Assembly: GCA_963667705.1 (NCBI GenBank) | Contig: OY763937.1 | Coordinates: forward strand, 515,821-579,820 | Direction of reading: 5' to 3' | From: Alphaproteobacteria bacterium | Lineage (GTDB): Bacteria > Pseudomonadota > Alphaproteobacteria > UBA828 | Length of the DNA: 64,000 nucleotides | Shown: positions 45,992 through 53,563 of the stretch, piece by piece | Layout of the letters: every line of letters starts with the position of its first letter | Position numbering within the stretch: the first letter of the stretch is position 1 | The notes under the pieces: model-generated | Databases searched by the model: none | What the model saw: the letters and a program-made list of their open reading frames with translations, nothing else | Told to the model about the DNA's origin: nothing | Translations under genes and position numbers: made by a program

Positions 45992-46983
45992 TCGACGCCG
46001 GCGATGTGCTCACCTGCGCAAACGATCGAATAAGCGCGATCGATCCGGGTAATCGTCGACAATCCGACCCGGTGCGTTCGCATGTTCAGGGAAAAGGACT
46101 CGCACGGTCGGCGCCTCACGCGCGGTGGCAGCGCCCGAATTCGGTACGAGGCCAACCCGCAAGGTCCTCCATGTTCCGATCCGCCTTGTTGGGCGGAATG
46201 TGGGGCCGATCGCCGGCAAGACGAGAAAGCGGCGCCTACGCAGTGAGTTATCCGAGGCGAAGGCTTCCACTCCCATAACCATCGGATAAGCCCCAATGAT
46301 GCTGCACGGCGTCCGACGCACGACTCAAGGCGGAGGTAGTGGTTAGCCTATTCCCTCCTGGAAGACTTTCACCCGCTACCCAACTGCCAGTTAGCTTCGT
46401 GCACAGACTTCCTGACCCCGTGCTGGAAGGTTACGGCCTTGCCCATTAGCCATGATATTGAAGTCGAGGGCATATCTCCTGCCATCAATCTCCGTGATCA
46501 AATGCGGCGCGGCTGCCACTTCCAATTTTGAAACGATGGGACATTTCGAGCCGGAGCCGCTCCAGGTAACCGGAAAGCCGCAGAAATCGACGCTTTCCTC
46601 TCGTCTGGCAAGCGGGCGCCTTATGCAAACCGTGTCATCTCAAATTGGCAGAGTTCAGAAAGTCTGAGGTTATCGGCGTTGCCGCACTCGTCGTCATCTT
46701 CCAACGCTGGTGAGTCGATCACCGCAGTCTATGGAGATTGACTAGACCGTCACCTCAATGTATTGACCCGGTGAGTCAATTTAGAGCGCTTGGCATTATC
46801 AGCTTGCACTTGCGGGACACAGCAATAGGATGCAGGCGACGGAAACGTACAGATTATCGGTGACCGTGAATGGGCATCCACCCGCGGTAACCCGGCCAGT
46901 TCCTGTACTACTTCGAATTTGCGTTGAGTCTGCACAAGATGGCGCGTCGGTGAGCCTTTGCAGCGTAAGGGAGACAAGTCATT

Positions 46984-47397
46984 ATGGCCGTATTTTCTGA
47001 AACAGAATGTAGGCATTGCGGGAGCAAAGACCATGCTTCAGATGATTGCCCGCACGATCATGGCTTCTTAGGCATCGGAGCATCAACTGAGTGCGCTCAC
47101 TGCGGAAGCAAGGAGCATTCAACCGAAAACTGTCCGCATGATCGTGGTCTCTTAGGCATCGGTGCATCAAAGGTGTGCGCCCACTGCGGAAGCAGAGAAC
47201 ACGCATCAGATTGCTGTCCGCATGATCACGGGCTTTCAGGTGTCGGTGGATCGACGCAGTGCGCTCACTGTGGGAGCAGCAACCATGCGTCGGATGATTG
47301 CCCGCACGATCATGGTTTCTTAGGCATCGGTGCATCAATTGAGTGTGCTCACTGCGGAAGCAAGGAGCACGCGACAGAAGATTGTCCACATGAGTAG
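46984..47397 (+). CDS. Protein made of five tandem CCHC zinc knuckles (CX2CGX3HX4C, retroviral-nucleocapsid/CNBP type), each followed by a PHDHGFLGIGAS linker
   Basis: The translated sequence shows five repeats of CAHCGSKEHxxxxCPHDHGxLGIGAS. GGGAGA RBS upstream of the ATG. The antisense ORF is a shadow of the repeat. Confidence 0.7.
   Translation: MAVFSETECRHCGSKDHASDDCPHDHGFLGIGASTECAHCGSKEHSTENCPHDRGLLGIGASKVCAHCGSREHASDCCPHDHGLSGVGGSTQCAHCGSSNHASDDCPHDHGFLGIGASIECAHCGSKEHATEDCPHE
47008..47394 (+). repeat. 81-bp tandem DNA repeat, about 4.8 copies, encoding the zinc-knuckle units
   Basis: Direct reading of the sequence. Confidence 0.8.
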
Positions 47398-47748
47398 TCG
47401 GTTGATCAGAGCCACAGGTCAGTACTCTCCCAGCGCATCGGTGGCAGGGTGCGCCATCCTCGTCCTGTTTGCCGGGCCCGCAGAGTGCCGCGGTTTTTCA
47501 CCGTTGCAAGCGATACTCGCGGGCCCCTTCGGTGAGGCATTCCGAGGCACCGCGTTGTCCCGAGGAATCCATGAACGCACATACACGCCCCTTAGCTGGG
47601 GCTGGGGAGGGGTTCGGCTTGCCCCGACGGTCGTACGGTGGCGAAGGCAGGAGGAAGCGGCGGATCGGTTCGTCCGCGACGACACGCGTCACCTTGGGAG
47701 ATCGGCAACGGCCAAGAAGGCTTTTCACCGATGCGTAAGCTGGTCGGA

Positions 47749-51111: not shown

Positions 51112-51260
51112 CTGCAGAGTCCTCCCTTGCTTGATGAAAAATTCGTGTGAAGTATTGCCCGGCGCTTAGCTGTAACCTCTCAACAAAGGACAATATCAAT
51201 GGGTTTACGCGCCGCGCAATGTCGACCCGTTGCGCCGAACAATGGCCAGAGACGCCCTCG

Positions 51261-52802
51261 CTATTGCCTATGCGCCGCGAAGGCACCAGCGAAACCACTG
51301 TCGCCGTCGGTTGCGCCAAACGTGCCGGCCACGCCCGTCGGGTGTTCACTCGGAGTGGCACCATTGCCAAAAAAGGCAGCACCCCATTCACCATACCACG
51401 CTGCATCATCCGTCGCTCTGCCGGTGGAGGCAAATCCCACCACGGGCATGGCAGAAGAAATTGATGTTGTCTCTAAGCCCAGTTCCTCTGGAAAGGAAGC
51501 GGGCACGCTTGCGAAATTATGGACCCGCCCTCTCAGCGTACCTACATCTGAAGTTGTTCCGAAGTCAGCCACCACCTCGACGTCAGCATCGAAGGACCCT
51601 GCATTTGCACCGCTCGCGGACGAGCTCTCGAAATACATTCCGATCGCCTTGCCAGCATAACTGGCAGTACCAGTCAAGTACTCGATGTGGCTGGGGTTGA
51701 AGGGGTCTCCCCCACCTGCAAGAACTCCAAACTCCGCAGAATCCACGCCAGCAGCCTCGTCCGGCAAATAGAGCCAGTATCCGAAGCTCAGGTAATTGAC
51801 GGTTGATACCTCTCTGGAAGAAGTCGAATTAAGGGTAACCGTCGGGCTACCATCGGCCGGTGTGAATGCCACGCTGTTACCGTACGGATAGTACCCTTTG
51901 GGTGGCGGCGACACCTCAAGCCAGCACGGATCGCTAACGCATGTGAATGTTCCCTGAGTGCCGTCCAAAGAACCCTCAAGTCCACCGCCCGGAACACGAA
52001 CGCCTTGCCAGTCGTGATCTGCGAGAAGATCCGGAATGTCATCGAGTACGATGGTCCGGTCCAAGCGCCCGTATCCGACCCAGGGTTCCTCTAATGCCAC
52101 TGAACGATCCGCGTCAGTCACCAGATTGACTGTCAACTTTCCGCCGGTGGTGTATTGCTTTGTTCCTTCGAGCAATTGCCATTGACTGCCCAGACTATGA
52201 TCTTCGACCAGCTCTGACTCGATTACGGAACGCCCCTGCCACTGCACGAGACTATTCTGCCTGCTAGCCGCGCTGGTTGACGAAAACACAAACTCCAGGG
52301 CGCCTAAGCTGTTGTGATATGGAGCCGCTTGCGCGTACCGAGGTGGTGAAGTTTGCACGACCATTTCATGACCAGAGCCAGAAATGGGTATCGCAACTTG
52401 CCTGATGTTACTGGTTCGGCCCTCGGTTAGGTTAAAGACAGATGCTACTGCGGCGGATGTGGCCAGTGACATCTCGATGTCAGCGCCCCCGTCGTCAGAA
52501 CCTCCGTTTCCGGTGTCGCCACCGTCTGCATCGCTTCCGTCACCTGAACCGCCGTCGTCAGAACCTCCGTTTCCGGTGTCGCCACCGTCTGCATCGCTTC
52601 CGTCACCTGAACCGCCGTCGTCAGAACCTTCATTTCCGGTGTCGCCACCGTTCTCGCCACTACCGTCGCCTGATCCGCCATCGCCAGCACCCCCGTTGTC
52701 GCCGCCCCCCGGGGTTCCTGTATTTAGACCGCCGCCGCCACAGGCGGCAAGAATCAGCATACTCAACGTGGCGGCGACGGCCGCGAAGTGGCGTACATGC
52801 AT
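51261..52802 (-). CDS. Lipoprotein with a G/D/S-rich repetitive linker and a TbpB-like C-terminal signature (surface lipoprotein type)
   Basis: Lipobox LAAC. (GGSGDGSDADGGDTGNGGSDD)x3 linker. C-terminus AAFFGNGATPSEHPTGVAGTF...GAFAAHRQ. AGGAGA RBS before the ATG at 52802. Confidence 0.7.
   Translation of the reverse strand: MHVRHFAAVAATLSMLILAACGGGGLNTGTPGGGDNGGAGDGGSGDGSGENGGDTGNEGSDDGGSGDGSDADGGDTGNGGSDDGGSGDGSDADGGDTGNGGSDDGGADIEMSLATSAAVASVFNLTEGRTSNIRQVAIPISGSGHEMVVQTSPPRYAQAAPYHNSLGALEFVFSSTSAASRQNSLVQWQGRSVIESELVEDHSLGSQWQLLEGTKQYTTGGKLTVNLVTDADRSVALEEPWVGYGRLDRTIVLDDIPDLLADHDWQGVRVPGGGLEGSLDGTQGTFTCVSDPCWLEVSPPPKGYYPYGNSVAFTPADGSPTVTLNSTSSREVSTVNYLSFGYWLYLPDEAAGVDSAEFGVLAGGGDPFNPSHIEYLTGTASYAGKAIGMYFESSSASGANAGSFDADVEVVADFGTTSDVGTLRGRVHNFASVPASFPEELGLETTSISSAMPVVGFASTGRATDDAAWYGEWGAAFFGNGATPSEHPTGVAGTFGATDGDSGFAGAFAAHRQ
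52491..52679 (-). repeat. 63-bp tandem repeat x3 encoding the G/D/S-rich linker
   Basis: Direct reading of the sequence. Confidence 0.6.
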
Positions 52803-53563
52803 TTCACTGCTCTCCTGTATGCAAACACAAGGACACCGGCGGGCGCCGGGCCGTTGCAAACGTCACAGGTGCATGTGAAGCCCCGCCTATTCGCCAAGCG
52901 CGGGGAGCTACCCCTTGCCGGGTTGAGGCTGTTCTATTCAGCGGGCGACCCGACAGAGCGGGCACCCGGACGTTTGCAAGGGAGATGATGGTACGAGTGC
53001 AGGAATCTGTCAACGCCGCACCATTCAGGTGACCTGCAAGAATTATGTGTCAGGGCGAAACGGGGGCTGCCGGCGGTTAGCCCGCGAATTTGACGCATTT
53101 GGAGCGCCAAGCGATCTGGTGGAACATTAACTCTCGACCGTTACGCTGCTGGCGACAAAGGCGGTTCGGCTACAGCTCGAGCGACGCGAGCGGCTGATCG
53201 ACTGGCTGGTAGAGAAACCAAATCTTGGAATGATTCCAGTCGCACCGCGGCCAGCGCGTAAGCGGACAACGGCACGGACTTGCATCGGGAGGGGTGGCGA
53301 CGGCTGCCCAATCTGACAAGGCGATGGCTGCCATGCGATCCGCAATGAGGGAAAAAACGTGGGACGCAAACTACCGAAAATATGAAATATTGTGTAAAGT
53401 CAGTCCCCTATTGAGTGTTTCTTTCGGAGCGAGCGCCCGGCGATTGAGGGATATGAAAGAGTCGGGAAGGGAAGCAGTCGCTCGAAGCTGGGAATTCAAC
53501 CCCCGGGGCGTTCGCTTTGCTTGCGCCCCGCCCTGCTCTACCGTGTGCGGCGGGAGGTGGGCG

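Follow-up and report, generated by a model that had tools for sequence, protein, structure and literature searches.

Does a stretch of DNA that is far poorer in GC than its surroundings record the genome of a foreign donor, or rather the kind of DNA in whose company it has travelled? The question is raised by a 7.15-kb islet at positions 46275-53424 of a 64-kb window (the whole stretch analysed, 64,000 nucleotides of contig OY763937.1 in assembly GCA_963667705.1, from an alphaproteobacterium). The islet contains a zinc-knuckle gene and three lipoprotein genes and makes up the right-hand part of a 43.8-kb insertion bounded by direct repeats; an initial annotation saw in it a secondary acquisition from a lower-GC donor. 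The interpretation that we favour, and consider rather likely, is that the islet is an exchangeable accessory cargo module, housed in a hotspot that extends from the gene of the AlpA regulator to the right attachment site (attR) of a family of mobilizable islands in high-GC, probably sponge-associated Alphaproteobacteria. Composition, related elements and incongruent divergence together support the view that it was acquired separately from the island backbone; a lower-GC donor organism is not supported.

Composition, edges and relatives of the islet

GC (guanine plus cytosine) content was scanned along the window in 1-kb windows. It falls into three tiers, as do GC at third codon positions (GC3) and the dinucleotide signature: in GC content, the chromosomal flanks are at 0.72-0.75, the island backbone (9.6-46 kb) is at 0.63-0.71 and the interval from about 46.0 to 53.5 kb at 0.53-0.60. 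The means are 0.718 for the chromosome, 0.664 for the backbone and 0.578 for the islet, which is the GC minimum among the 7.15-kb windows of the 64 kb (other windows: mean 0.675, standard deviation 0.023, minimum 0.637). The low-GC islet that had been placed at about 46.3-53.3 kb is borne out by these values; the accompanying figure of roughly 70% GC elsewhere suits the chromosomal flanks but not the backbone, which has about 66%. Chromosomal genes have GC3 values of 0.86-0.96 and backbone genes of 0.77-0.92, against 0.49, 0.65, 0.49 and 0.57 in the islet genes, and by dinucleotide signature the islet lies at a distance (x1000) of 174 from the chromosome and of 125 from the backbone, compared with 18-40 between chunks of one class. 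A GC bump at 49.2-49.8 kb is a coding repeat (195 nt x 2.7) of the largest lipoprotein, of 741 amino acids (aa). A promoter and terminator scan found no enrichment. Overall, the GC drop is real, far exceeds local fluctuation and is located at synonymous and non-coding sites.

The insertion as a whole is delimited by the 11-mer CGGAGCGAGCG, of which the window has just two exact copies, at 9600 and 53425. Syntenic relatives, found by a genome scan with the flanking O-methyltransferase, provide empty sites, and homology to these breaks at window positions 9537/9611 and 53424/53510. In L006, a Rhodospirillales metagenome-assembled genome, the O-methyltransferase gene is followed after 90 bp by the gene of an M20 amidohydrolase; L001 has the same gene order, with an insert of about 1.3 kb between the two. 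From the two copies of the 11-mer and the empty sites in relatives it follows that the whole 43.8 kb is one direct-repeat-bounded insertion.

On its left side, the islet adjoins a conserved non-coding motif of about 120 nt (46156-46274, plus strand), the end of the backbone. Two related contigs, L041 and L043, are homologous to the window up to one and the same base, at ...CCACTCCC in this motif; because homology to both ends there, 46274 is taken as the left edge of the islet, in agreement with the earlier estimate of about 46.3 kb. The nesting at the right end of the element is likewise confirmed, with the islet lying between the backbone end at 46274 and the attR core at 53425.

Relatives of the island's coupling protein TraG in metagenome contigs keep the order TraG, a conserved open reading frame (ORF) and AlpA, while the DNA after AlpA differs. 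In the contig with the closest TraG (L043; 90% aa identity) the islet is missing, and within about 480 bp AlpA gives way to genes of MetH, CysG and sulfite reductase. L041 continues with a Fic gene and 3.5 kb of other low-GC DNA before RpoD is reached, L032 with WYL/AAA genes and L033 with STAND/TPR genes. L041 and L043 belong to the MKWU01 contigs, which come from the metagenome of the sponge Aplysina aerophoba.

A related island on a 3.33-Mb ENA contig (L024) carries the right part of the islet on a different backbone. Its backbone is 85.6% identical to that of the window (32737-41936; 1316 differences in 9137 columns), and its right module, the 3.4-kb right part of the islet, is 97.7% identical (50040-53227; 73 differences in 3129 columns), with 97% identity at the right end up to attR. 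Divergence of the module is six times lower than that of the backbone, and the right-end module has therefore moved between diverged backbones. L024 lacks window positions 41937-50039 (TraG, AlpA, spacer, knuckle gene and 741-aa gene) and has about 520 bp of unrelated filler instead; because it retains 66 bp upstream of the start of the 741-aa gene, it seems to have arisen by deletion from an arrangement like that of the window. Neither uniform GC nor an islet conserved in all relatives, the two outcomes named beforehand as contrary to a secondary acquisition, was found. That part of the initial annotation stands, carried by the three-tier composition, by related elements with no islet or with other cargo, and by the incongruent divergence from L024.

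Source of the islet

The proposal of a lower-GC donor fared less well. A search for the source lineage found no low-GC donor among 5.8 billion proteins, the set to which all homologue counts below refer, and PLSDB plasmids gave no match to islet DNA or to the 741-aa protein. Exact look-ups of the 301-aa lipoprotein, of the O-methyltransferase and of the 100%-identical protein P0040 returned nothing. The homologue loci examined on mobile or variable DNA lie on high-GC contigs, with the exception of the contig of the zinc-knuckle homologue (61% GC). At L025, L026, L027, L029 and L049 the homologues adjoin transposases, integrases or defence genes. In L024-L029 (five mobile or variable loci) they form local GC3 troughs of 0.49-0.67 among neighbours mostly at 0.74-0.95, and the L049 homologue has a GC3 of 0.78 (neighbours 0.82-0.93). 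At L050, a homologue of the 741-aa protein is encoded among chromosomal housekeeping genes with a GC3 of 0.84 (neighbours 0.87-0.94). A higher AT content than that of the host is typical of accessory and mobile genes. Most simply, the islet genes would have a low GC3 for as long as they are carried on mobile DNA, by a mechanism that we infer, and the immediate source was probably the mobile gene pool of the community.

In the scenario that we favour, the island would have inserted into a repeat resembling repetitive extragenic palindromes (REP-like) between the O-methyltransferase and M20 amidohydrolase genes of a high-GC, Rhodospirillales-like alphaproteobacterium, whose habitat is probably the sponge microbiome. 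The module would fill the variable interval between the end of the transfer module (TraG, ORF, AlpA and the 120-nt motif) and attR, having joined the backbone separately, by exchange with other mobile DNA from within the community, the likely route being recombination between related islands or their accretion in tandem. Its low GC3 would mark long residence in a mobile, rarely recombining gene pool and not a recent low-GC import, and it would supply three outer-membrane-type TbpB-barrel lipoproteins together with a cytoplasmic five-knuckle CCHC protein. Mosaic islands with tandem accretion and module exchange are known from the biology of integrative conjugative and integrative mobilizable elements.

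Several points weigh against this scenario. The 11-bp core is short, and the exchange mechanism is reconstructed from L024, L041 and L043, which were compared without left ends and integrases. Mating-pore genes could hide among six backbone ORFs without Pfam matches, which bears on the mobilizable character of the island. The window has no Slam (DUF560) gene, and surface display of the lipoproteins is a prediction. A low-GC ultimate source is possible, as most homologues lie on metagenome contigs and few contexts were examined. Finally, the backbone end at 46274 and the ending of L043 soon after it would also fit the remnant of a second element.

This last point belongs to the main rival explanation, tandem accretion, which we consider conceivable but unlikely: the islet, the right arm and attR would be a decayed second element at the same REP-like site, and the repeats would flank a composite. 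It would account for the end of the conserved backbone at precisely base 46274 in three elements, with chromosomal genes within 270 bp in L043, for the right 3.4 kb including attR that accompanies a different backbone in L024, and for a REP-like site that is a repeated target (an IS1595-type ORF occupies it in L001). The interval 46275-53424, however, encodes no integrase, relaxase or transposase and no remnant of one; a third 11-bp core was not found between 36.7 and 53.4 kb with one mismatch allowed, and searches for direct or inverted repeats bounding the islet returned only chance-sized matches of 14-25 nt.

Less probable again is a fairly recent, direct import from a lower-GC organism (about 55-58%) of the four genes, which would not yet have ameliorated. 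The GC3 of 0.49-0.65 against 0.86-0.96 in the host, the distinct dinucleotide signature and the lack of the islet in related genomes and in L043, whose TraG is the closest, are all as such an import would leave them. Nevertheless, the protein set and PLSDB hold no such donor; the examined homologues (40-96% identity) are troughs on mobile DNA in high-GC contigs, one of them of 61% GC, and the L050 homologue sits at a GC3 of 0.84 among housekeeping genes. In addition, the four gene families differ in distribution and are syntenic elsewhere only in L024.

A more elaborate idea, to which we give little credence, holds that the 120-nt motif is a dedicated capture or recombination site that loads interchangeable GC-poor cargo in the manner of an integron-like docking site, with the CCHC protein as a possible nucleic-acid-binding accessory. 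The modules that can be cited for it are the TbpB-like lipoproteins of the window, Fic in L041 and defence-like ATPases in L032 and L033. The copies of the motif (1840-1958 in L043, 1969-2083 in L041) are followed by sequences that are unrelated beyond the shared end base. A long hairpin is predicted, for which covariation is uninformative with only three sequences; the motif has no Rfam match, and no further copies were found in the fetched loci or in viral contigs. As for traits of integrons or composite transposons, the islet is without a recombinase, a transposase or bounding direct or inverted repeats, and the sole hint is a sub-threshold match to sRNA-Xcc1 (below). Least probable of all is that the islet genes are old residents of the island with no separate acquisition, whose low GC stems from gene-specific constraints (repeats, surface proteins rich in Gly, Ser, Thr and Asn, silencer binding): low GC3 does recur like a family property in the examined mobile or variable contexts, and coding tandem repeats are present, yet the deficit lies at synonymous positions and also affects non-coding DNA (709 bp plus 620 bp), the GC-richest part is formed by the coding repeats of the 741-aa gene, and the context of L043, which has the closest TraG and lacks the module, together with the sixfold lower divergence from L024, largely refutes it.

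Islet genes and their products

The left part of the islet is a gene-free stretch of 709 bp (46275-46983; GC 0.52-0.59) with no convincing ORF, in keeping with the roughly 700 bp of non-coding DNA described before. Six-frame and DNA comparisons of it gave no homology, and neither an Rfam match nor pseudogene remnants were found. At the other end lies the right arm of the island (52803-53424; GC about 0.55-0.62), which comprises the promoter and leader of the 513-aa lipoprotein gene and the attR-proximal arm, and is 97-99% identical to L024 up to the junction. Rfam applied to 45.5-54 kb returned only the sub-threshold sRNA-Xcc1 match, at 52837-52954 on the minus strand (28 bits, gathering threshold 53). 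This match lies in the leader of the 513-aa gene. It is repeated in the L024 orthologue (8210-8327) and is absent upstream of other homologues; upstream of the L027 homologue, a short piece of the leader itself matches as well. Within the right arm of L024 (region 5555-8400), an insertion sequence of the DDE_Tnp_1 type is flanked on both sides by copies of window positions 52995-53227; at 233 bp, these copies far exceed a normal target-site duplication.

Upstream of each of the four islet genes a consensus-like AGGAGG ribosome-binding site had been noted. The exact sequence is present for the 741-aa gene only, the other genes having GGGAGA, GGGAGG and AGGAGA. Sites of similar quality precede AlpA, TraG and the chromosomal M20 gene, and because backbone and chromosomal genes are equally well provided, the quality of these sites does not discriminate islet genes from others. 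In-frame tandem repeats occur in three of the four genes, namely those of the zinc-knuckle protein (47017-47384; 84 nt x 4.4), the 741-aa lipoprotein (49277-49812; 195 nt x 2.7) and the 513-aa lipoprotein (52489-52697; 63 nt x 3.3), the exception being the 301-aa gene.

All three predicted lipoprotein genes were confirmed, on the minus strand at 47749-49974, 50206-51111 and 51261-52802. Their products have the lipoboxes VLAAC, LSAC and LAAC, each followed by a G-rich linker, and a C-terminal 8-stranded TbpB-like beta-barrel was found in the islet lipoproteins. A lipobox and a C-terminal barrel define Slam-dependent surface lipoproteins (Hooda et al. 2017, PMC5449769). The islet proteins share with the members of that group (TbpB, LbpB, HpuA, fHbp, NHBA, the hemophilin HphA and PmSLP; PMC5449769) the N-terminal lipobox, the C-terminal 8-stranded barrel and, in the 301-aa protein, the handle domain, and precisely these proteins are the best structural matches. 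They differ in that the 64-kb window encodes neither a Slam gene (TPR plus DUF560) nor a TonB-dependent receptor, in that their host is an uncultured, probably sponge-associated alphaproteobacterium with the genes on a mobilizable island, and in scores far under the cut-off of the slam_lipo model (NCBIfam NF041636; 25.4 and 31.4 bits against 80, with no match in the 513-aa protein). Folds and motifs suggest that the three are probably surface-displayed ligand binders.

The 301-aa protein (GC3 0.49) shows the fold most clearly. It consists of a handle and an 8-stranded barrel, matches Pfam TbpB_B_D (E 3e-11) and has 29 homologues. Its AlphaFold (AF2) model, built from 29 sequences, has a pLDDT (predicted local distance difference test) of 86, and its best Foldseek matches in the PDB are the TbpB C-lobe (E 4e-9), HphA hemophilins, HpuA, LbpB, NHBA and fHbp; on the strength of the Pfam and Foldseek matches the protein is a single TbpB-type lobe. 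Differences between the window and L024 copies of its gene are spread evenly over the codon positions (0.026, 0.020, 0.033), which suggests relaxed or diversifying selection. In the 513-aa protein (GC3 0.57; 496 aa in the L024 orthologue) the lipobox is accompanied by 21-aa repeats rich in G, D and S and by a variable domain, and residues about 332-513 form a TbpB-like barrel at the C-terminus. By itself the protein has no Pfam match, and pairwise BLASTP and single-sequence Pfam searches gave no link to the other two lipoproteins. Its family, however, comprises 626 representative clusters, with a TbpB_B_D match in 13 of 46 members, and hhalign aligns residues 332-513 of this family to 118-301 of the 301-aa family with 97.5% probability (E 8.5e-12).

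The 741-aa protein (GC3 0.65; counted from the Met preceded by AGGAGG) is the most elaborate: a lipobox and three 65-aa repeats precede a leishmanolysin-like metzincin domain and a TbpB/NHBA-like C-terminal barrel. It has more than 329 homologues, and its relatives are 694 to 1129 aa long. The metzincin domain presents the motifs HELGH, H526 and SLMSY, that is, an HExxH motif, a third zinc ligand and a Met-turn, within a metzincin fold (structure model with pLDDT 79); an alignment of 44 family members shows no variation at H455, H459 and H526 and hardly any at E456 and M534 (in SLMSY). The invariant HExxH histidines, the distant invariant His526 and the S-x-M-x-Y turn are shared with leishmanolysin (GP63, peptidase family M8) and other metzincins. 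The protein differs from leishmanolysin in having no Pfam Peptidase_M8 match and in the fusion of the domain to a lipobox, the three repeats and a TbpB-like barrel. We predict that it is a tethered leishmanolysin-like metalloprotease.

The remaining gene (46984-47397, plus strand; GC3 0.49) encodes, as had been recognized, a zinc-knuckle protein, of 137 aa with five tandem CX2CX4HX4C units in a 28-aa period. The five motifs were identified by inspection, the Pfam scores being below gathering (zf-CCHC 18.9 against 20.8 bits, zf-CCHC_3 20.5 against 27). The protein has the exact spacing and the tandem arrangement of CCHC zinc knuckles (Pfam zf-CCHC) in retroviral nucleocapsid and CNBP-type arrays, but it is bacterial and extremely rare, with only eight homologues (P0030-P0037), and has a conserved P-H after each unit. 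In most of these homologues, and unlike the window copy, the array is joined to a hydrophobic, glycine-rich segment, probably in the membrane, and one also has a YARHG domain. The window protein has neither a signal peptide nor a membrane tail and ends directly after the fifth knuckle; a frameshifted tail was looked for 3' of the gene and not found. A literature search on zinc knuckles in sponge symbionts gave nothing relevant. The protein is predicted to be cytoplasmic, and the motif suggests binding of nucleic acid or zinc.

The carrying island and its target site

The island is inserted in a dispersed REP-like repeat. The attL core (9600-9610) is the left copy of CGGAGCGAGCG inside a truncated repeat, the point where homology to the empty sites of L006 and L001 breaks; attR (53425-53450) consists of the right 11-bp core (53425-53435) and the remainder of the target repeat. 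Joined together, the outer halves restore the REP-like repeat, …GCCAAGCGAG CGGAGCGAGCG CCCGGCG.. TGAGGG…, the intact target being reconstructed from L001 and L006. The repeat, CCCTCAGGCGCCGGGCGCTCGCTCCG, is dispersed in L001 (3193-3218, 10688-10713 and 11773-11798), and L024 has a copy at about 5555-5580; there, the same right junction lies in REP-like sequence next to different chromosomal genes. At the O-methyltransferase/M20 site of L001, an ORF at 10724-11740, by eye an IS1595-type transposase, lies between two copies of the repeat. Because this ORF occupies the same intergenic site, the REP-like repeat is regarded as a recurrent insertion hotspot. Integration into a tRNA gene was considered and rejected: the window has a single tRNA gene, tRNA-Gly at 59767, which is 6 kb away from the island.

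At the left end, next to attL, a P4-type tyrosine integrase is encoded (9668-10981, plus strand; Pfam Arm-DNA-bind_3, Phage_int_M and Phage_integrase). Beside it, at 12008-14430, lie an AEP-TOTE-type primase (Pfam E 3e-100) and a ResIII/DEAD helicase, which may be a replication module of the island or components of a conflict system. The main cargo of the island (15381-31802) is a single-module type I polyketide synthase (PKS) of 2351 aa (KS-AT-DH-ER-KR-ACP), accompanied by a reductase-sulfotransferase fusion, an RND pump with HlyD adaptor and a B12-binding radical-SAM enzyme; we take this cluster to resemble the 'Sup'-type PKS clusters typical of sponge symbionts, here placed on a mobilizable island.

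The transfer genes follow. A TrwC-type relaxase/helicase (32404-36735, minus strand; Pfam TrwC and AAA_30) has about 84-86% nucleotide identity to L024. The TraG/VirD4-type coupling protein (42999-44975, plus strand; Pfam T4SS-DNA_transf and TraG-D_C) has relatives in sponge metagenome contigs, and its matches to PLSDB plasmids are at 30% identity or less. The conserved backbone ORF after it (45020-45712, start approximate, plus strand), without a Pfam family, follows TraG in L031, L032, L040, L041 and L043 by tblastn. The last backbone gene (45779-45991, plus strand) encodes an AlpA-family regulator or excisionase (Pfam Phage_AlpA, E 9e-12) that comes after TraG in L032, L041 and L043; an SSB is also encoded in the backbone. 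No VirB-type or mating-pore Pfam match was found in any ORF scanned, six backbone ORFs having no Pfam match of any kind, and the island therefore looks mobilizable and not self-transmissible. From its gene content it is probably an integrative, mobilizable element.

In this respect it resembles the P4-integrase/AlpA mobilizable islands, which likewise have an integrase at one end, an AlpA-type regulator, a relaxase and a coupling protein without a detected mating pore, short terminal direct repeats with an empty site in relatives, and GC-poor cargo that differs among related elements. It differs from them in its target, a dispersed REP-like repeat and not a tRNA gene, and in a backbone that ends in a sharply bounded, conserved 120-nt motif.

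Overall, this is an ordinary mosaic genomic island with some unusual cargo, and a clean mosaic of three layers: chromosome, island backbone and cargo module. Its low GC would reflect membership of a mobile gene pool and not a low-GC donor species, which calls for caution wherever donors are deduced from composition. The locus also brings to light an integrase that targets a dispersed REP-like repeat and, among bacteria, a very rare family of proteins with tandem CCHC zinc knuckles. Finally, TbpB-fold lipoproteins, of which pathogens among Neisseria and the Pasteurellaceae provide the best-known examples, circulate on probably mobilizable islands in uncultured high-GC Alphaproteobacteria, where all three islet proteins, one of them fused to a leishmanolysin-like protease, are candidate factors for host interaction or nutrient piracy.

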